DNA of 62,893 bases, filler included, from Myxococcota bacterium (GTDB lineage Bacteria > Myxococcota > Myxococcia > Myxococcales > Myxococcaceae): NCBI GenBank assembly GCA_049322255.1. It is 6 parts of 6 records of this genome, joined end to end, with 100 filler letters (N's around TTAATTAATTAA, not from the genome) between each part and the next. Parts side by side here need not be neighbours in the genome. Positions count along the whole stretch, not along the records: positions 1 to 27,604 come from JBMORE010000047.1; 5 more parts are not named here. One strand, given 5' to 3'. Numbering within the stretch: position 1 is the first letter of the stretch; each line of letters begins with the position of its first letter. The notes under the pieces were generated by a model. That model saw only the letters and a program-made list of their open reading frames with translations, was not told the origin of the DNA and made no database searches. The position numbers and the translations under genes are program-made. Of this stretch, positions 13,622-28,890 are shown one piece after another.

Positions 13622-13698
13622 ACGGTGGGATGGACCCCGGCCTCCCGCAAAGCACTGGAGGCGGCGGGCGCTGCTCTTCGCGGGTAAGCTACGGCGTT

Positions 13699-14247
13699 AT
13701 GACACCCGTTCGATTCCTCTTGGCTGGGCTCGCTCTCGTACCGGCGTGGGCGCTGGCCTCGTCGGTCATCGCGCGCACCGTCGGCGAGCGCGCCAAGGAG
13801 GCGGACCGCGTCGTCCTCGCACAGGTGCTCGACTCGCGCACCTTGGTGCCGCAGGACGACCCACGGCGGATGCTCACCGTCACCACCGTTTTGGTGCAGG
13901 AGAGTTACAAGGGCAGCGGCCCCCAGCGGCTGGAAGTCGTTCAGCTCGGGGGCACGCACGGGCTGTGGGAGGCCCACATCCCGGGTGATGCCACCTTTGC
14001 CGCGGGCGAAGTCGCCCTTTTGCTCTTGCGCTGCGGTGACCCTGCCCACCCCGCGCGTTGCAATCTGATGGCGCTGGGCGAGGGCAAGCTTCTTTTGGTC
14101 GGTGAGGACGTGCTTTTGCGCTCGATCGCCCAAAACACCTTCACCCGGAGAAAGCTCGCCGAGGTGCTCGCCGAGATTCGCGCGGCGGTCGGCCTTCCTC
14201 TCCCGGTGGGAGAGGGCAAAGGTGAGGGAACCGGGGTGACGCGGTGA
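13699..14247 (+). CDS. Secreted hypothetical protein, partner of the downstream protease
   Basis: Signal peptide (..AWALA); GTGA overlap with the protease start. Confidence 0.75.
   Translation: MTPVRFLLAGLALVPAWALASSVIARTVGERAKEADRVVLAQVLDSRTLVPQDDPRRMLTVTTVLVQESYKGSGPQRLEVVQLGGTHGLWEAHIPGDATFAAGEVALLLLRCGDPAHPARCNLMALGEGKLLLVGEDVLLRSIAQNTFTRRKLAEVLAEIRAAVGLPLPVGEGKGEGTGVTR
14197..14228 (-). repeat. REP-like hairpin repeat, copy B
   Basis: Reverse complement CCCTCACCTTTGCCCTCTCCCACCGGGAGAGG; read in frame as LPLPVGEGKGEG. Confidence 0.85.
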
Positions 14248-16025
14248 GGTGGAAGCTCGTCGCCGCGGGCTTATTCGCCGCCACCGGCGCGCTCGCGCAG
14301 GGAAGCTACAACTACCTGCCCTTCAAGATGCTGAACACCTCGGCGGACCCGTTCGAGTACTACCTCGACGCGCGCAGCCCAAACCCCGCCGGGCTCACCC
14401 TCTCCAACGTGCAGGCTGCCACCGACAACGCCTGGAAACGGTGGGACGACGTGTCCTGCGCGGCCACCGCCTTTCGGGCGAGGGGGCTGTCGACGTCCGC
14501 CAACATCCCCGAGGTGCGCGATACCTACGACGTCTACAACGTGTCGACGATCTGGATCGGCAGCACCTCCGACCCCTACTACGGCGTCGCCATCGGCAGC
14601 TCGGACGTCACCGCGATGACGCTGCCCCTCTCGTACGCGGGCCAATTGCAGCAGTGCGACATCTTCATGAACGGCGCCCAGCGCACCTGGAGCACCCTTG
14701 CGGCGACGCCGACGGGCGCGGTCGACGTGGAGAGCATCGTCCTCCACGAGGTGGGCCACTGCCAGGGGCTCGATCACAGCTACACCGGAGAGCTCGCCGA
14801 TACCGCTGACGTGATGTACGCCATCACTCCCATCGGCTCGGCCAAGCGCACGCTGACCCAGCGCGACATTCAAGCGTTGTGCACTCGCTACCCGGCCTCG
14901 GGCGTGGTGGGTGCGCCCTGCCTGGCTGACGGAGGCTGCGGGCAGGTCAGCCTCAAGTGCGTTCGTCCGCCGCTGGCGAGCGGAGGGTTTGCGCCGCCGA
15001 TGTGCAGCACGGGCTGTCCGCTCAACCAGAATTTCAACTGCGGCGTGCCGTACGTCTGCGGGGCCTCGAGCGAGTTCTCTCCCCAGTACAACGGCGCTTG
15101 CCTGCCCCCGGGCGAGTACGTCACTCAGGTTGGCAAGCCTTGCACCAGCGCTGGCGAGTGCGGCTCGGCGAACGGCCAGTGCTTCGTTCAAAATCAGCTC
15201 CCCTCCGGCGCGCCGGCGTGGACGGCGGGCTACTGCACGCAGGACTGCGGCACAGGTCAGCCCAGCTGCCCGGTGGGAGCGCGGTGCATCGATTTCGGCG
15301 GCGGCGCCTTTCGCTGCCTCAAGGAGTGCCGCGTGGGCACCGGCGATTGCCGCTCCGGGTACACCTGCGTCTTGCCCTCCAACGGCCCGCCCGGGGTGTG
15401 CGTGTCGTCGTGCCGGGGCGACGTTGATTGCGGCACCGGAGCGGTCTGCCGGGTGTGCGACGGCACCTGCCTTTCCACCAACAACCCCTCGGGCCAGATT
15501 GGCGACGCCTGCACCGACGCGAGCCAATGCGGCGCTGGCCAGGTGTGTGCGCAGTTCGTCAACGGCAACAACCAGGGCATCTGCTCACAGCCCTGCGGCC
15601 TGGCCTGCTCCAGTTGCCCGGCGGGGAGCACCTGTCACCCCATCGGCAGCCGGGGTGAGTTGTACTGCCTGCGCGACTGCACCACCGGCACCTGTCCGTC
15701 GGGCCTGCAGTGCGGCTATCTGCCCACCGGGCGCGGCTGTGTCCCCCGTTGCAGCCTCGACCCCGAGTGTCCCGTGGGCACTCAGTGCATCAACGGGGAA
15801 TGCCGGCCTCCCACCTCGTTTGACGGCGGCTGCGCCCTCTGCCCCGGTGGTTCTGATGCAGGCCGCCCCACCCAAGGCCTTCCTGCCGACGGCGGCGCCG
15901 GCTCGGGTCCCGGTTCGGGTGGATGCGGGTGCAGTGTTGCTTCTCCTTCCACCTCCACCGATGCTCTCTTGTGGGTGCTCTTTCTCTCATGCGCGAATCT
16001 CGCTCGACGCCGGCAGAAGCCGTAG
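14244..16025 (+). CDS. Matrixin (M10)-like zinc metalloprotease with Cys-rich repeats and MYXO-CTERM-type tail
   Basis: Signal peptide, HEVGHCQGLDH, Met-turn VMY, many Cys repeats, GGCGCS + TM + RRR. Confidence 0.88.
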   Translation: MRWKLVAAGLFAATGALAQGSYNYLPFKMLNTSADPFEYYLDARSPNPAGLTLSNVQAATDNAWKRWDDVSCAATAFRARGLSTSANIPEVRDTYDVYNVSTIWIGSTSDPYYGVAIGSSDVTAMTLPLSYAGQLQQCDIFMNGAQRTWSTLAATPTGAVDVESIVLHEVGHCQGLDHSYTGELADTADVMYAITPIGSAKRTLTQRDIQALCTRYPASGVVGAPCLADGGCGQVSLKCVRPPLASGGFAPPMCSTGCPLNQNFNCGVPYVCGASSEFSPQYNGACLPPGEYVTQVGKPCTSAGECGSANGQCFVQNQLPSGAPAWTAGYCTQDCGTGQPSCPVGARCIDFGGGAFRCLKECRVGTGDCRSGYTCVLPSNGPPGVCVSSCRGDVDCGTGAVCRVCDGTCLSTNNPSGQIGDACTDASQCGAGQVCAQFVNGNNQGICSQPCGLACSSCPAGSTCHPIGSRGELYCLRDCTTGTCPSGLQCGYLPTGRGCVPRCSLDPECPVGTQCINGECRPPTSFDGGCALCPGGSDAGRPTQGLPADGGAGSGPGSGGCGCSVASPSTSTDALLWVLFLSCANLARRRQKP

Positions 16026-17830
16026 CTCCCCCGCAGCGGACGCGGGCGGATTTCACCACCGCCTTCGTGCTCCAGGCCTTGGTCCGCCAGGGCTTGCTCG
16101 CTCCGCAGCAGGGCCAGGAGGTGATGGCCAAAGAAACCGCCGCGCGGGCTCGGGTGCTCAAGGGCGTGGGGGCGCAAGGGAAGGAGGCCGCGCGCTACGA
16201 CGTCTCTCCGGTGGAGGTGGTGGCGGCGTTTCAAATTCCGCTCCCCAACGGGCGAGGCGAGCACCTGGACCAAGACCGAGTCAGCGAAGCTGCGGCCCAA
16301 GCCGCTGGGGTGGCGTACCGGAAGATCGACCCGCTCAAGCTGGACATGGCGCTGGCCACCCGCACCGTCTCCCGCCCGTTTGCGCAAAAGCACGTGCTCT
16401 TGCCGCTGGAGAAGACCGAGGGGCGGCTGGTGGTGGCGGTGGCCAACCCCTTCGACCACGAGCTGTTCGAGAACTTGGCTCACCTCGCCGGAATGCCCAT
16501 CGAGCCGGTGCTCTCCGCCAAGGCCGACATCCTCAAGGCGATTGCCGAAATCTACGGCTTCAAGAAGACGCTGGCGAAAGCGGCCGACGACTTCGCCGTG
16601 GGCCCGCAGATTCAGAACTTCGAGCAGTTGGTGTCGCTCTCCGGCACCCAGGAGCTGGAGGCTTCCGATCGCCCCGTGGTGCAAGCGGTGGACTACCTGC
16701 TCCGGTATGCCTACGACAACCGCGCTTCCGACATCCACATCGAGTCGCGGCGCGAGAGCTCCCTGGTGCGCCTGCGCATCGACGGCGTCTTGCACCCGGT
16801 GTACACGCTCCCCTCAGGGGTGCACGCTCCCATCGTCTCGCGCGTGAAAATGATCGCGCGCATGGACATCTCAGAGAAGCGCAAGCCCCAAGACGGCCGT
16901 ATCAAGACCGAGCGCGAGGGGCGGGAGGTGGAGCTGCGGGTGTCCACCTTGCCCACCGCCTTCGGAGAGAAGGTGGTGATCCGCATCTTCGACCCTGAGA
17001 CGCTGGTGCAGGATATTTCCCAGCTGGGCTTCGAGGCCGACGAGAAGGGAGTCTTCGAGTCGTGGATCGACCACCCCCACGGGCTGATTCTGGTCACCGG
17101 CCCCACCGGGAGCGGGAAGACCACCACCCTCTATTCGGCGCTCAAGGCGCTCGCCGGTCCGGAGGTGAACGTCACCACCATCGAAGATCCGATCGAGATG
17201 GTGTGGGACGCCTTCAACCAGGTGCAGGTGCAACCGAAGATCGGCCTCGACTTCGCCGGAGCGCTCCGCCACATCCTCCGCCAGGACCCGGACATCATCA
17301 TGGTGGGCGAGATTCGTGACCCCGAGACGGCAGAGAACGCCATTCAGGCGGCGCTCACCGGGCACTTGGTGCTCTCCACCTTGCACACCAACGACGCGGT
17401 GGGCGCGGTGAGCCGTATGAAAGACCTGGGGGTGCCGCCGTTTCTCCTCTCCTCCAGCTTGCTGGGGGTGATGGCGCAGCGCCTCTTGCGGCGGGTGTGC
17501 GGCTCGTGCGCGGTGGAGGCGGCGCTCACCCCCGATGAGTTGATGGCGCTGCGTACGCCGTTGCCTCTGGTGGCAGGCGGGGTGCGGCCGATGCGCGGCG
17601 CAGGCTGCGTGCGGTGCCGCAACACCGGGTACTTCGGGCGAACCGGCGTGTTCGAGATCCTCGACGCCAACACCCAGGTACGCGAGCTCATCAACCAAGG
17701 TGCGTCGACCGACACCATCACCCAGCACGCGAAAAAGGCGGGCATGCGCACTTTGCGCGAAGCGGCGGTGCGCAAGCTCGCCCAGGGCCTCACCTCCTTC
17801 GACGAGGTGATGCGCATGACCTCGGCGTAG
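15989..17830 (+). CDS. GspE/PilB-family secretion ATPase
   Basis: ASDIHIE, PQDGRI, GPTGSGKTTT, LRQDPDIIMVGEIRD, TGHLVLSTLHTN, two CxxC; start approximate. Confidence 0.93.
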   Translation: MRESRSTPAEAVAPPQRTRADFTTAFVLQALVRQGLLAPQQGQEVMAKETAARARVLKGVGAQGKEAARYDVSPVEVVAAFQIPLPNGRGEHLDQDRVSEAAAQAAGVAYRKIDPLKLDMALATRTVSRPFAQKHVLLPLEKTEGRLVVAVANPFDHELFENLAHLAGMPIEPVLSAKADILKAIAEIYGFKKTLAKAADDFAVGPQIQNFEQLVSLSGTQELEASDRPVVQAVDYLLRYAYDNRASDIHIESRRESSLVRLRIDGVLHPVYTLPSGVHAPIVSRVKMIARMDISEKRKPQDGRIKTEREGREVELRVSTLPTAFGEKVVIRIFDPETLVQDISQLGFEADEKGVFESWIDHPHGLILVTGPTGSGKTTTLYSALKALAGPEVNVTTIEDPIEMVWDAFNQVQVQPKIGLDFAGALRHILRQDPDIIMVGEIRDPETAENAIQAALTGHLVLSTLHTNDAVGAVSRMKDLGVPPFLLSSSLLGVMAQRLLRRVCGSCAVEAALTPDELMALRTPLPLVAGGVRPMRGAGCVRCRNTGYFGRTGVFEILDANTQVRELINQGASTDTITQHAKKAGMRTLREAAVRKLAQGLTSFDEVMRMTSA

Positions 17831-17832
17831 AT

Positions 17833-17867
17833 CCCCTCTCGCTTTGGGAGAGGGTTAGGGTGAGGGG
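17833..17867 (-). repeat. REP-like hairpin repeat, copy C (left arm flanking DUF559)
   Basis: Reverse complement CCCCTCACCCTAACCCTCTCCCAAAGCGAGAGGGG. Confidence 0.9.
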
Positions 17868-17868
17868 T

Positions 17869-18222
17869 GTGACCTCCTACAACAAATTCACTCTTGTCGA
17901 GCTCGCCAGACGCTTGCGCCAGGACCAAACCGATGCCGAACGCTTGTTGTGGCAGCTACTGCGCAACCGGCAAGTCCGAGGGAAGAAATTCCGTCGCCAG
18001 TACCAAGTGGGACGCTATCTGCTCGACTTCTACTGCCACGAGGCGCAGTTGGTCGTCGAGCTGGATGGTGGCGGGCACGCGATGCCCGAGCAACAGGTCG
18101 AAGATGGAGAGCGCGACGCGTTTTTGCGCTCACAAGGCCTGCGAGTGCTGCGCCTCTGGAACCATCAGGTCCTTCAGGAAACAGAGGCGGTCTTGACCAA
18201 GATTTGGGACGAGTTGGGGTGA
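17869..18222 (+). CDS. DUF559 (Vsr-like) endonuclease domain protein, 117 aa
   Basis: ARRLRQDQTDAERLLWQLLR, KFRRQ, DFYC..LVVELDGGGH, D.ERD.FL...G..VLR.WN. Confidence 0.92.
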   Translation: MTSYNKFTLVELARRLRQDQTDAERLLWQLLRNRQVRGKKFRRQYQVGRYLLDFYCHEAQLVVELDGGGHAMPEQQVEDGERDAFLRSQGLRVLRLWNHQVLQETEAVLTKIWDELG

Positions 18223-18238
18223 GTTGGGCGTGTTGGCG

Positions 18239-18273
18239 CCCCTCACCCTTTCCCTTTCCCAGATGGAGAGGGG
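18239..18273 (+). repeat. REP-like hairpin repeat, copy D (right arm flanking DUF559)
   Basis: CCCCTCACCCTTTCCCTTTCCCAGATGGAGAGGGG; inverted relative to copy C, 29/35 identical; contains the stop codon of the convergent gene. Confidence 0.9.
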
Positions 18274-20498
18274 TGCACCGCGATATACGGCTTGGGCCAG
18301 GCGAGGGCGTCGTAGCCGCGTTCTTCGGCGTGGTGGAAGGTGAGGTAAGGGTCGCGCAGGTGCGGTCGGGCGAGGGCGCACAGGTCGGCGCGACCGGCGG
18401 CGAGCACGGTGTTGGCGTGGTCGGCCCCGAGAATCGCTCCCACCGCCAGCACCGGTACCTTCGCTTCGTGCCGAATCTGGTCGGCGAAAGGCACTTGGTA
18501 CATCCGCCCGTATTGGGGCCGCGACTCGGGCACGTTCCCGCCGCTGGAGACGTCGATGAGGTCGGCCCCGTGCTCGTGGAACAGCCGCGCCACGGTCACC
18601 GACTGCTCCGGCGTCAGCCCGTCGGGCCCCAGCCAGTCGCTCGCCGAGATACGCACCGCGATCGGCTTGTCTTTCGGCCAGGCGGCGCGCAGGACGTCGA
18701 AGACTCGAAGAGGGAAGCGCATGCGCCCTTCGATGCCGCCGCCGTATTCGTCGATTCGCCGGTTGGAGAGCGGGGAGATGAAGCTCGACAAGAGGTACCC
18801 GTGGGCGGCGTGGAGCTCGAGCATGTCGAAGCCGGCGCGCTCGGCGAGCTCCACCGCGCGTACGTACTCCTGAAGCACCCGGGCCATGTCCTCGCCGTTC
18901 ATCTCCTTGGGCGTGGGCCATGCGTTGCCGTAGGGGATGGCCGAGGGGGCGAGCGTCTCCCAGGCGCCCTCGGTGAGCGGGCCGTCTCCTTCCCAGGGCA
19001 GGCGGCAGGAGCCCTTCCTCCCCGCGTGCCCCAGCTGGAGGCAAATCTTCGCCCGCGAGTGGGTGTGCACGAAGTCGACGATGCGCTTCCAGGCGGCGGC
19101 GTGTTCCTCGCGGTACATCCCCGCGCAGCCGTAGGTGATGCGCCCGATCGCCGAGACGTCGGTCATCTCGGTGACCAGGAGCCCCGCGCCCCCCACCGCA
19201 CGGCTGCCCAAGTGCACCAGGTGCCAGTCGTTCACCGTGCCATCGGCCGCCGAGTACATGCACATCGGCGACACCGCCACCCGGTTCTCCAGGGAAAGCC
19301 CGCGCAGCCGAAAGGGCGCGAAGAGCGGAGAGGGCGCTCGGCCATCAGAGGACCTTCGACTTTGGTTCGCTTGGGCGAGCTGTTCGTCGACCTTCTCCAC
19401 CAGCGCGGGGTCGCGGGCGCGCAAGTTCTCGTAGGTGATGCGCTTGCTGCGCGTCATGAGATTGAAGGTGAACTGGAGCGGGGGCTGCCCCAGGTAGCGG
19501 GCGCTGTTCTCGAACCACTCCAGGCTCGTCTGGGCGGCGCGCTGCGTCTTCGAGACCTCGAGGCGGCGCTCGGCCTCGTAGGCGGCGAGGGCGGCGGAGA
19601 CATCGCCGGTGCCCAGCCGCTGGAACGCCGCCACCAGCGCGATGGCGTCCTCCATCGCCAACTTGGTGCCCGAGCCGATGGAGAAGTGCGCGGTGTGCGC
19701 GGCGTCTCCCACCAGCACCACGTTCTCGTGGTGCCAGCGCTCGTTGGTGATGGTGGGGAAGGTCCGCCAGATCGATTTGTTGGTGAGCAGCCGGTGCCCC
19801 TGCAGCTCTTCGGCGAAGAGCTTCTCGCAGAAGGCGACGGTGTCCGCCTCCGAGGCGTGCGTTAGGCCTGCCTTCCTCCACACCTCCTCACGGCACTCGA
19901 CGATCCACGTCGAGGTGCTCTGGTGGAAGGGGTAAGCGTGAACCTGAAAGAGGCCCCAGGGAGTCTCCTTGAACACGAAGGTGAACGCGCGCAAGGGCAA
20001 GGTGGTGCCCAGCCAGCAGAACTTGCAGCGCCGCCAATCGATCGACGGTCGAAAGTGCGCGGCCAGCTCCTCGCGCACCGCCGAGTGCACTCCGTCGGCG
20101 GCGAGAATCAGGTCGGCCTTGGGGAGGGCCGAGAGCTTCGCCTCTTGCTGGAACTGAAGCTTCACCCCCAGCTCCCGGCAGCGTGCCTGCAAGATGAGGA
20201 GCAGCTCTTGTCGCGACAGGCCGCAGAACCCGTGGCCGGTGGAGGTGGTGCAGGTGCCCCGAAAGTGCGTCTCGATGTCGTCCCAGTAGGCGAAGCGGGA
20301 GGCGATGGCGCGGTAGCTCTCGGGGTCGGCCTCCTCGAGGTTCCCCAGCGTTTCCTTGGAGAACACCACTCCCCACCCGAAGGTGTCGTCGGCGCGGTTG
20401 CGCTCGAGCACGGTGAGGTCGGCGTCGGGAAACACCTTCTTCATCAGGAGGCTGAAGTAGAGGCCGGCGGGACCTCCGCCGATGCTGATCGCCTTCAT
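18243..20498 (-). CDS. Bifunctional salicylyl-/anthraniloyl-CoA monooxygenase-reductase (FAD monooxygenase + OYE domain)
   Basis: [28 protein letters not shown]-terminal [24 protein letters not shown]. Confidence 0.92.
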
Positions 20499-20551
20499 CG
20501 AAAGGCTTTGCTAGCACGACCGCTCTCGCCGGGCGACCGGAGCAGCGGTAT

Positions 20552-21229
20552 ATGAGCGCCGCTTTGGCCGACTCTTCGGTGCGCCGCCCGTGGCTCGCGG
20601 TTCTCCTCTCCCTGCTCAGCCCAGGGCTCGGCCACCTCTATGCGGGCGAGCTTCTTCGCGCGCTCGGGTGGGCGGCGGCGGCCGTCTTTCTCGTCCCGGT
20701 CATCGCGTGGGTGTGGGCGCTGGCGCCTTTTTCCACGGTGGTCTTTCTCGCCCTCTGCCTGGCGGTGCTGCTGGGCGTCTACGTGGGCGCAGCGGTGTGG
20801 GCATACCGCGAAGCGAAGGCGCGCCCCGCCGGGGCTCCGCGGCGGCCCTACCAGACGCTCCTGGCCTACGTGCTCTTCTATCTGGTCGCCTTCTTTGGCG
20901 GGCAGCTCGTCACCGGGCTTTTGCGCGAGACGGTGCTCGACGCGGTGCGTGTTCCTTCCAACCGGCTGGCGCCAGTGCTCCTGGAGGGTGACTGGGTGCT
21001 CTTGCGCAAAGTGGGTGATGGGGCTCAGCCCGACCCCGGCGAATGGGCCGCCTTCTACTTGGAGACGCCCACGCTCGGGCCGCAGCCGCTGGTGGTGGGC
21101 AGGGTGGAAAAGACGCCCCAGGGAGGGCTGCTTCCCGAAGGTCAGTATCTAGGCAAGGTGGAGAGCGTCTACTTCTCCGTCGGACCGGAGGGAATTCGTT
21201 GGAGCCGCATCGGCCTGCGGCCTCCTTAG
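20552..21229 (+). CDS. Membrane protein with degenerate signal peptidase I (S26)-like domain
   Basis: AVLLSLLSPGLGHLYAG N-terminus, TMs, VPSNRLAPVLLEGDWV, C-terminal IRWSRIG. Confidence 0.7.
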   Translation: MSAALADSSVRRPWLAVLLSLLSPGLGHLYAGELLRALGWAAAAVFLVPVIAWVWALAPFSTVVFLALCLAVLLGVYVGAAVWAYREAKARPAGAPRRPYQTLLAYVLFYLVAFFGGQLVTGLLRETVLDAVRVPSNRLAPVLLEGDWVLLRKVGDGAQPDPGEWAAFYLETPTLGPQPLVVGRVEKTPQGGLLPEGQYLGKVESVYFSVGPEGIRWSRIGLRPP

Positions 21230-21254
21230 GAGGAGGAGCGCGGGGCAGAGGTTT

Positions 21255-22790
21255 TTAGAAGCGGGCCTGCAAGATGGTGTTGAAGCCCAGCTGATGCTCC
21301 TTCTCGAAGGTCGGCTCCACCACTCCCGAGACGCTGTCGCGGAAGGTCACCCGGTTGGCGTCGCGGGTGTAATAGACCTCGCCGACGGCGGCGACGCTCT
21401 CGGACAGGTCCCAGCGGAAGGTGGCCTTGGCCGAGAGGATGGGAATGGTGTCGAAGCCGATGGGCAGAATCGACACCAAGTTCACGTCGCGTACCACCAC
21501 CGTGCGCGCGCCGGAGAGGCTGGCGGGAGGCTCGGCGCCGCCAATGACCGTCTGGGGGCTCTTGAAGGAGGCCGGCTGCTGAATGCCCAAGGTGAGGCCG
21601 GGGGTGAAGTGCGCGCCCGCGAAGTGGTAGTCGAAGCCGGCGGCAGCGAACATCTCGGGCTTCACCACCGTGCCGTCGGGGAAGTCGAAGAAGGGGGGGA
21701 AGCCGGGCACCTCGAACTGGATGTACGAGAGCGTGCGGTAAAGCCCCACGGCGTGGAGGCGTAGGAAGTTGTACTTGAAGCGCGCCTGCAGGATGGCTGC
21801 GGTCGCTCCTTGCGGAACGGTGCGTGCGGGCACGTCGGGGTCGGCGAGTGTCTGCACCAACTGGCTGCCTTCGAGCGACACCGTGGCCTGGAAGCCGCCG
21901 GGGTACGGCTCGGGGGCGAAGAAGCGCTGGTAGACGTCGGGGTCGTTGCGGTAGAGCTTGAAGTCCACGCTCGTCCCCACCGGCACGCCGTGGTGGTAGA
22001 CGATTTGCGCAGAGCCGCCCGCCGAGTTGATGGGCGCCGCGATGCCTTGGCTGGCCAGCCCGGGGATGAGGCCCTTTTGGAAATAACCCCCGCCCGCCTC
22101 CAGACGAAAGGTGGGGGTCAAGTCGACGCCCGCGCCGCCCAAAAAGCCGTAGAGGCGCTCCTTCTCGAGGATGAGCTCGTTGAGCACCAGCGCGGTCTTC
22201 AACCCCGCGAAGGCGTACCAGCGGTCGCGCGTGATCTGGAGTTTCATGCCCGGCACGCCGGTGGAGAAGGCGTTGCTGGTGAAGATGCCGGTGCCGCCCC
22301 AGGAGATGCGGTACGCGTAGCCCAAGCGAAAGCGATCGGCGGAGACGGGAAAGCCGGTGAGGGAGAGGCTTTCGTTCGGGCCCCACCAGGCGGGTCGAAA
22401 AGCCAGGCGGATGTAGCTCGAGTTGTCGCGCAAGTCGATGCCGCCGCTGGGCCGCTCGAGGAAAAGGACGGTGAAGGCCGCCTCGGTGGTCAGGCCCTCG
22501 AAGAAGGCGGGCATCGACTTGTAGAGCACCAGGTTGGAGAGTGTCTCGAAGCCGGAGAACTTGGTGTTGAGGTTCTCGAAGAAGAGCGTGTTTTGCGGCC
22601 CTGCTCCGAAGCCGGCGTTGGGGCTGGAGGGGTTGGTCTCGCCGGCACCGGCGAGCACGTTGTCGTCGGCGAAGACGAACGACAGACGGCTGTCGACGAA
22701 GTCCCCCGCCAGGGCGGGTGCGGCGGCCAGACAGGCAGCGAGGGCCGCGGTGCGAAGCGTTCTCAAAGTCCCCTCCAACAGGCCCCCCAA
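21255..22790 (-). CDS. Putative outer-membrane beta-barrel protein
   Basis: Signal peptide ending ALA, amphipathic strands, C-terminal ILQARF; start approximate. Confidence 0.75.
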   Translation of the reverse strand: MGGLLEGTLRTLRTAALAACLAAAPALAGDFVDSRLSFVFADDNVLAGAGETNPSSPNAGFGAGPQNTLFFENLNTKFSGFETLSNLVLYKSMPAFFEGLTTEAAFTVLFLERPSGGIDLRDNSSYIRLAFRPAWWGPNESLSLTGFPVSADRFRLGYAYRISWGGTGIFTSNAFSTGVPGMKLQITRDRWYAFAGLKTALVLNELILEKERLYGFLGGAGVDLTPTFRLEAGGGYFQKGLIPGLASQGIAAPINSAGGSAQIVYHHGVPVGTSVDFKLYRNDPDVYQRFFAPEPYPGGFQATVSLEGSQLVQTLADPDVPARTVPQGATAAILQARFKYNFLRLHAVGLYRTLSYIQFEVPGFPPFFDFPDGTVVKPEMFAAAGFDYHFAGAHFTPGLTLGIQQPASFKSPQTVIGGAEPPASLSGARTVVVRDVNLVSILPIGFDTIPILSAKATFRWDLSESVAAVGEVYYTRDANRVTFRDSVSGVVEPTFEKEHQLGFNTILQARF

Positions 22791-28110: not shown

Positions 28111-28890
28111 TCATCGAGGAGCGGGGACGGGTTGGGTGAGGGTCACCCACACCTGGGTGCGCTGGCGGCGAAGCTCGATGGTGGTTCCGCTGTGCGCACG
28201 CTGAACCTGGAGGGCGAATTCCTCGGGGGCAGTGCCGGCGTCGGCGAGCTCCTCCCAGCCGGGGGGAAGCGGCCCCGAGGTCCACTCTCCTTCGCGCAGC
28301 ATGGTGACGAGCTGCCGCACGAGGAAACCAGCGCGACGTTCGGGGGCGGTGTAGGCGATGGCGAAGGTGAACACCTCGCTCTTCACCGTGGCGTCCGCGG
28401 GCTTGGGAAAATAGGTCGCGAGCTGCTCAGTGGAGAGCGGCGCCGGGGTCTGCAACAGCTTGCCCACGTCCTCCGGGCCGATAGGTAAGACGAGCGAGAG
28501 GACGACCTCGTCTGCTTCGCGGCGGCCCTCGAGGAGGAAGGGAGGCCGCTGAGCCAAGGCTTCGCCGCCGTCAGCAGGCGAAAAGCCGGTGGCGGCCAAG
28601 AGCGGGCGCACGGCGTCGGAGAGCGAGGCTCCCTCCGGAAGGCTCCAGGAGAGCCGCCGCTCGAGGGTGGCGCGCCCCTCCACCAGGGTGGCACCGCGAA
28701 ACTCGGGGAAGATGGTGAAGAGCGCGGTCCGTAGGTCGATGGAGCTGTGTGCCGGGGGGGCGGCGGCGATGCCCGCGTCGAGCGTTGGCGAGCGGGCGCA
28801 GCGTTGGCAACCGGTTGCCAGCAAAAGAAGGGATACCCAGAGGCCGACGCCCCTCACCCTGCCCCTCTCCCAAGGGGAGAGGGAGCTCAT
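28111..28890 (-). CDS. Hypothetical lipoprotein
   Basis: LLLLATGC lipobox; ATG overlaps the glpK stop; alternative GTG at 28857 lies inside the repeat. Confidence 0.7.
   Translation of the reverse strand: MSSLSPWERGRVRGVGLWVSLLLLATGCQRCARSPTLDAGIAAAPPAHSSIDLRTALFTIFPEFRGATLVEGRATLERRLSWSLPEGASLSDAVRPLLAATGFSPADGGEALAQRPPFLLEGRREADEVVLSLVLPIGPEDVGKLLQTPAPLSTEQLATYFPKPADATVKSEVFTFAIAYTAPERRAGFLVRQLVTMLREGEWTSGPLPPGWEELADAGTAPEEFALQVQRAHSGTTIELRRQRTQVWVTLTQPVPAPR
28850..28883 (+). repeat. REP-like hairpin repeat, copy E
   Basis: CCCCTCACCCTGCCCCTCTCCCAAGGGGAGAGGG, 3 nt past the glpK stop. Confidence 0.9.

Follow-up and report, generated by a model that had tools for sequence, protein, structure and literature searches.

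The stretch of DNA analysed here (the window; 62,893 nucleotides) joins six contigs of the 4.8-Mb genome of a Myxococcota bacterium (GCA_049322255.1; G000 in the following). At positions 17833-18273 it carries a 441-bp cassette that consists of one DUF559 gene between two inward-facing BoxC/triplex motifs (TMs). The gene (17869-18222, plus strand) has a GTG start and encodes a protein of 117 amino acids that matches PF04480 (E=1.6e-37) and is predicted to be a stand-alone, YcjD-like nuclease with a Vsr fold; no further Pfam domain was found in this free-standing ORF. The left arm (17833-17867, plus strand) is built from a pyrimidine stem, a 3-nt loop, a purine stem, a TTA loop, and a third strand that points toward the DUF559 start, and its end lies 1 nt 5' of the start codon. 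The right arm (18239-18273, minus strand) is inverted and eroded, with its third strand toward the DUF559 stop. Both arms are 35 nt long and are 83% complementary (29/35). Coordinates, ORF, and PF04480 match agree with the preliminary description, which had reported a 117-residue DUF559 protein between such inverted repeats. It had also assigned each repeat an outward-facing hairpin and a gene-facing tail; both are present, but as portions of a triplex motif that has three parts, including a mirror third strand.

The cassette fills the gap between two convergent genes that lie outside the element, as had been noted before. The gene on the left (15923-17830, plus strand) encodes a GspE/PilB-family ATPase, whose stop codon, with its last base at 17830, precedes the left arm by 2 nt. 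The one on the right (18243-20498, minus strand) encodes a bifunctional salicylyl-CoA 5-hydroxylase/oxidoreductase (PRK08255, over the cut-off), and its 3' end overlaps the right arm, from which it takes its last nine codons and the stop codon (18243-18245); seven homologues of this oxidoreductase have unrelated tails at that place. The DUF559 gene has a GC3 of 0.74 versus 0.87-0.90 in the neighbouring genes. Three solo copies of the repeat had been claimed elsewhere in the window, two of which are clear: one at 14196-14228 (plus strand), inside the 3' end of ORF 13630-14247 and translated as its C-terminal tail, and one at 28851-28883 (minus strand), which belongs to the next contig (C48). 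At 28122-28142, the third is a purine half only, degenerate and lacking an evident hairpin, and both 28-kb copies sit on a different contig from the cassette. Where a TM is translated as a protein C-terminus (ORFs 13630-14247 and 18243-20498), a Pro/Gly-rich tail results, and the same was observed in many DUF559 homologues. Unrelated to the TM, two tracts of tandem GGGAGC units face each other in the window (24947 and 25089).

By its sequence, the repeat is a member of the long-known BoxC/PIT/TM-ECO family of intrastrand-triplex motifs. It follows the family consensus CCCTCNCCC N3-6 GGGNGAGGG N3 GGGNGAGGG, and its third strand mirrors the purine stem, as is characteristic of the family. The left arm shows the TM-ECO layout with one stem mismatch (one position differs from the consensus), and the right arm differs at two positions. 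When folding was compared with shuffles, the left arm gave a z of -2.68, and the right arm (z -0.08) folded no better than shuffles. Purine stem and third strand show mirror covariation at two variable stem positions, with 75/79 and 73/79 distinct arms concordant (distinct arms are taken as they come, uncorrected for relatedness), and the second loop varies from 2 to 30 nt over the 79 arms. Such mirror covariation is not Watson-Crick pairing, and it points to selection acting on the three-stranded fold. Rfam contains no family for the motif; the search gave a single chance-level match and no intron match.

These motifs were studied in Holder 2015 (PMC4666352), according to which the TM forms a triplex in vitro (with E. 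coli oligonucleotides) and not stably in vivo, is linked to genomic instability, and has no mobility gene around its sites; its main text mentions neither ycjD nor a nuclease. It also cites work of Maher's group in which PIT/TM had no promoter or terminator activity. The repeat described here shares with the family in that study the consensus layout, the many copies per genome, the patchy copy number among relatives, and the pairing of two loop types in doublets (5/5 in K-12, 39/40 in G000). What departs from that picture is that the motif is here tied to DUF559.

Depending on the definition, G000 contains 168-171 exact TM copies, 274 near-exact ones (at most two mismatches), or 285 under a second definition. 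Since one block-shuffled version of the genome gave 0 copies at up to five mismatches, against 168 exact and 274 near-exact copies in the real one, this abundance is not due to chance. Many copies adjoin gene ends. Adjacent TMs at most 40 nt apart face inward like the cassette arms in 40 pairs, outward in one, and lie on the same strand in none, and spacers of 14-16 and 23-24 nt are the most frequent. Four other inward pairs are 100-1500 nt apart. Two types of second loop are combined in 39 of the 40 doublets. The second loops of the cassette arms, which do not end in G, differ from those of these 39 doublets, so the doublets did not simply arise from the cassette by deletion. A weak A[GA][CT]T site begins at +6 past the third strand in 34/80 doublet arms versus 24/205 singles; both this site and the two second-loop classes were defined after inspection of the data. 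Several 14-nt doublets share one central copy of A[GA][CT]T, and several doublets of 23-24 nt have two. E. coli TMs carry a GCGCAC-like flank instead, and flank motifs may therefore be lineage-specific. Unlike the inward doublets of G000, those of four other genomes (G169, G170, G195, and G288) are often back-to-back, with third strands outward, or form one hairpin with a third strand on each side.

One full-length DUF559 gene was found in G000, together with two weak half-length PF04480 matches. Six residues of the protein (E24, D53, E64, D66, H70, and D79) are invariant among 20 homologous sequences. Mapped by motif order rather than by superposition, they follow the order of the Vsr/EDxHD catalytic residues as laid out in PMC3239194, and by sequence pattern the Vsr-type active site appears intact. 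The AlphaFold model (pLDDT 91) matches three structures: 3hrl (41% identity in the structural match); the catalytic domain of the homing endonuclease I-Bth0305I, which is the closest characterised fold (Foldseek E 1.4e-4; HMM E 3.6e-5 by sequence search); and Vsr (1vsr; Foldseek E 0.039, probability 0.99). The match to the YcjD family PRK09767 (E 2.6e-25) lies below the equivalog cut-off.

The association of gene and repeat extends over many bacterial groups. The preliminary description had suggested a test of motif enrichment and orientation beside solo DUF559 genes, and the enrichment is borne out by two sets of loci. The first set comprises full-length DUF559 genes, the best 80 of at least 574 loci confirmed in GTDB, with Chloroflexota, Verrucomicrobiota, Geobacter relatives, Nitrospirota, and Deinococcota among the groups represented. 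At those of its loci with enough flank, a generic triplex detector placed an inward TM upstream in 67/76 and downstream in 57/74; it is present on both sides in 49/70 and on either side in 66/70, compared with 10/1018 displaced windows. Outward-strand hits also occur in this set (29/76 upstream, 26/74 downstream), in part owing to the symmetry of the hairpin. In a second bacterial class, a looser detector found both arms at 17/30 and either arm at 25/30 loci, versus 2/228 controls (about 1% of control windows overall). Among the five loci of that class without arms, variant arms can be made out by eye at three, and the gene has a stop at the other two. Where the DUF559 gene is broken (G131, G189, and G220), the arms are eroded or not visible. 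The half-length PF04480 matches had no TM nearby (0/19, many of them in host genomes with few TMs).

Repeat number also tracks the gene. Within the family of G000 (151 genomes, table counted by hand), the gene is present in 22/27 genomes with at least 20 TM matches versus 3/124 below that number, a contrast whose statistics are overstated as the genomes are kin and only 7/51 genera are positive. The contrast between gene presence and TM number recurs within genera g16, g14, and g6 (with G088 as the exception in g6); in g16, nine gene-bearing genomes hold 272-639 TMs and the single gene-less genome holds 9. In the second class (121 genomes), the gene was found in 11/14 genomes with at least ten TMs versus 17/107 below; 17 of the 28 gene-bearing genomes have fewer than ten matches to the fixed pattern, many of which are explained by variant arms. 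The expected coupling of repeat copies to DUF559 presence thus holds in both comparisons, although some repeat-rich genomes are gene-less: 5/27 in the family (G007, G017, G020, G069, and G077) and 3/14 in the second class (G208, G222, and G288). G017 is 99% complete and has 169 TM matches, and G107 reaches 639 TMs although its DUF559 gene has a stop. Two unpublished genomes, G064 and G198, fall into the repeat-poor, gene-less cells, and no conclusion depends on either. Usually the gene is single: among 25 gene-bearing genomes of the family, 18 have one copy and the others 2-6 matches. In two of three genomes examined, the amplified variant is the one that flanks the DUF559 gene: odd gene-flanking variants of G009 and G029 have 73 and 65 copies in their own genomes and 0 in four other genomes each, and the variant of G025 has a single copy there, counted with a pattern that is possibly too strict. 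The G009 variant (L174, L187) bears a 12-24-nt hairpin in its second loop, and this genome has six DUF559 matches, at least one of which is split.

Several comparisons bear on mobility. At a clpX-dnaK-like junction, 158-167 nt separate the anchors in four empty genomes (of other genera), versus 585-649 nt in seven filled ones. Two genomes retain just a lone hairpin at a uvrB-uvrC site, which is the product that doublet collapse yields in E. coli. Cassettes often keep one site throughout a genus; different DUF559 clades also occur at one site, with copies from other sites nested among them, in a tree of 108 columns in which many forks are weak. At one shared site, similarity is higher between the two arms of a cassette (0.855) than between orthologous arms (0.73-0.74; n=8), and a second comparison gave 0.853 versus 0.79-0.80 (n=7); genome-wide homogenisation could also yield this likeness. 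Furthermore, TM-like translated sequence was found beside the DUF559 domain in 45/71 longer homologues versus 9/345 controls, a count in which the amino-acid pattern overlooks visible cases and some homologues are near-duplicates or mere extensions. Proteins with such an in-frame cassette include HsdR/M/S, Mod, aminotransferase III, CoA-transferase III, and GHMP kinase. Restriction-modification subunits are over-represented among the in-frame cassette proteins (P0123-P0183).

Among 5426 E. coli genomes, eight K-12 TM loci yielded four clean presence/absence pairs, all of solo TMs and one doublet and unpolarised by an outgroup; the other loci show partial deletion or decay, and several alleles considered as empty sites were ruled out as partial decay. 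One of the four pairs has an 8-bp direct repeat, and three are imprecise replacements that are equally possible as deletions. The fixed-length target-site duplication and precise ends left by IS elements or MITEs with a DDE transposase were not seen in these four pairs. The K-12 gene ycjD has a truncated 3' TM (intact in another strain) and no TM upstream, where a long near-perfect hairpin unrelated to the TM is located (L116:3908-4330). According to PMC12817139, ycjD is located at the site that the eefRABCD operon occupies in other lineages.

An empty site had also been anticipated at the GspE/monooxygenase junction itself. Relatives with ATPase and oxidoreductase adjacent were not found among the matches listed (161 further matches exist), and the support comes instead from the empty alleles at the clpX-dnaK-like junction and from a shorter ATPase gap in 5/19 relative loci (one of the 19 is from G064), where the ATPase lies 52-182 nt from the homologue of gene 21255-22790, with a lone hairpin in one gap. 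Because these two genes are adjacent in 5/19 relatives, G000 has gained 3.4 kb between them. This gained stretch (17831-21254) comprises the cassette, the oxidoreductase, and an ORF without Pfam match (20552-21229), and has no TM at its right end; as it spans more than the cassette, the cassette's own junction is masked. Contig joints that skip the gene were considered as cassette excision and rejected, for their sides are just 25-27 nt with other letters between, which fits TM doublets from elsewhere. Matches were found in two records of a phage collection and 47 of a plasmid collection; with many of the latter being of chromid or chromosome size, there is no sign of phage or plasmid carriage.

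REP hairpins are tetranucleotide-tagged, and Vsr repair endonucleases are paired with a cytosine methyltransferase and nick T:G mismatches. The cassette resembles REPIN-RAYT systems, which according to bioRxiv 10.1101/2022.05.22.493013 comprise a usually single-copy gene flanked by a linked repeat that occurs as singles and inverted doublets, with largely vertical inheritance. Here too the gene is flanked by an amplified repeat with inverted doublets, except in G025, and DUF559 is mostly present once per genome and often at one site per genus. A difference from RAYT is that the gene reaches new sites at times, and several copies and in-frame insertions of the cassette occur. Moreover, RAYT is an HUH/Y1 enzyme (PF01797) and the present protein has a PF04480 Vsr/restriction-endonuclease fold, and the ends are triplex motifs instead of tagged hairpins. 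With the EDxHD homing endonuclease I-Bth0305I (PMC3239194), DUF559 shares the fold of the catalytic domain and matching acidic and histidine residues, and the selfish spread by cutting and host repair that we propose. It differs from this group in the lack of the N-terminal NUMOD DNA-binding region and of an evident intron or intein, and in its terminal repeats and its occurrence at many unrelated sites rather than a single allelic one. Vsr itself has the fold and the E/D/H/D pattern in common with DUF559; the cassette, however, is bracketed by repeats and has no cytosine methyltransferase among its immediate neighbours. E. coli YcjD (3hrl) belongs to the same family and its gene has the 3' TM, but the hairpin upstream of ycjD is a different one. 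On the basis of these comparisons, the cassette would work like a REPIN-RAYT system and share its chemistry with EDxHD homing endonucleases, while it fails a defining feature of each.

In our assessment, the cassette is probably part of a selfish system similar to REPIN/RAYT and driven by a Vsr-fold nuclease together with host repair. The DUF559 enzyme likely spreads the repeat, because the two are paired in many bacterial phyla and gene presence goes with repeat abundance; the cassette is likely the autonomous member and the about 280 solo and doublet TMs of G000 the non-autonomous ones. The partnership suggested by the preliminary description thereby gains support from flank, co-occurrence, variant (2/3 genomes), and empty-site comparisons, and is weakened by the repeat-rich genomes without the gene (5/27; 3/14). 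For the mechanism, we infer binding, cutting, cut site, dimer bridging, and repair route as follows. In transiently single-stranded DNA, the motif would fold into an intrastrand triplex of the purine type. Recognition of this fold would fall to the nuclease, which probably acts as a dimer and could span two facing motifs; it would nick a few bases past the third strand, with the weak A[GA][CT]T at +6 to +9 as the candidate site in G000. Host repair would be required because hydrolysis, the chemistry of Vsr-type enzymes, cannot reseal DNA; by template switching or microhomology joining it may copy the motif, the doublet, or rarely the whole cassette elsewhere, and such repair-based copying would leave imprecise junctions.

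Vsr is a repair enzyme, and DUF559 might serve the host as a structure-specific repair nuclease for the resolution of triplexes, which would make TMs tolerable without spreading them; TMs would then multiply by recombination or replication slippage. The vertical persistence of the gene at one site within genera and the genomic instability that accompanies TMs fit this idea, and co-occurrence is explained equally well; the tight bracketing of the gene by inward arms, the in-frame landing of the whole unit in unrelated genes, and the persistence of repeat-rich genomes without the gene are not, and we regard it as unlikely. Such gene-less genomes would be expected if another trans-acting enzyme moved the TMs and DUF559 were a passenger that was captured once between two of them as a composite unit. 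Inward TMs do occasionally bracket other genes (the four pairs in G000 and examples in G017), and to our knowledge Vsr chemistry has no strand-transfer step. Y1/RAYT transposases (PF01797), the only transposase family searched for, were however not found in G000, G005, and G017; weak matches in G009 and G015 had a TM at 1/8 such loci, and RAYT was rejected as mobiliser. An alternative partner gene in G017 was likewise rejected, since four TM-bracketed stretches held, by eye, unrelated ORFs. With no recurrence among the other bracketed stretches examined, and with invariant catalytic residues and a within-genus tracking of repeat number not expected of a passenger, this explanation appears quite unlikely.

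Regulation of the nuclease gene by the motifs (as operator, terminator, or RNA structure, with the genome-wide copies as host binding sites) would agree with the left arm ending 1 nt from the start codon and with the many copies beside gene ends. It is highly improbable in view of the presence/absence alleles within E. coli, the in-frame insertions, the lack of an Rfam family, and the missing promoter and terminator activity of PIT/TM cited in the main text of PMC4666352. Finally, flanking of DUF559 by chance might be suspected of a repeat with about 280 copies in 4.8 Mb and four further inward pairs at 100-1500 nt; it is refuted, with a negligible probability left, by both-sided flanking at 49/70 and 17/30 loci of unrelated taxa versus about 1% of control windows.

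More than 260 genomes contain BoxC/TM repeats, which have been on record since the 1990s. The nuclease family DUF559/YcjD, of which even E. coli K-12 has a member, is uncharacterised. A literature search returned no paper that ties the two together, with thin coverage of subscription papers and with Holder 2015 taken from its main text. The link between DUF559 and BoxC/TM joins this nuclease family to a repeat without a known partner gene. We give even chances to the further proposal that the cassette represents a novel class of mobile element. Such an element would encode no protein other than a minimal nuclease of the Vsr fold, which would read a DNA triple helix at the element's ends, and it would spread BoxC through the genomes of many phyla and insert in frame into proteins without transposase or recombinase. 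If the enzyme does read the triplex fold, intrastrand triplex DNA would acquire a bacterial role along with a protein partner, many DUF559 "fusions" with Pro/Gly-rich linkers would be insertions, and a mobility route without a transposase would be added to those known.
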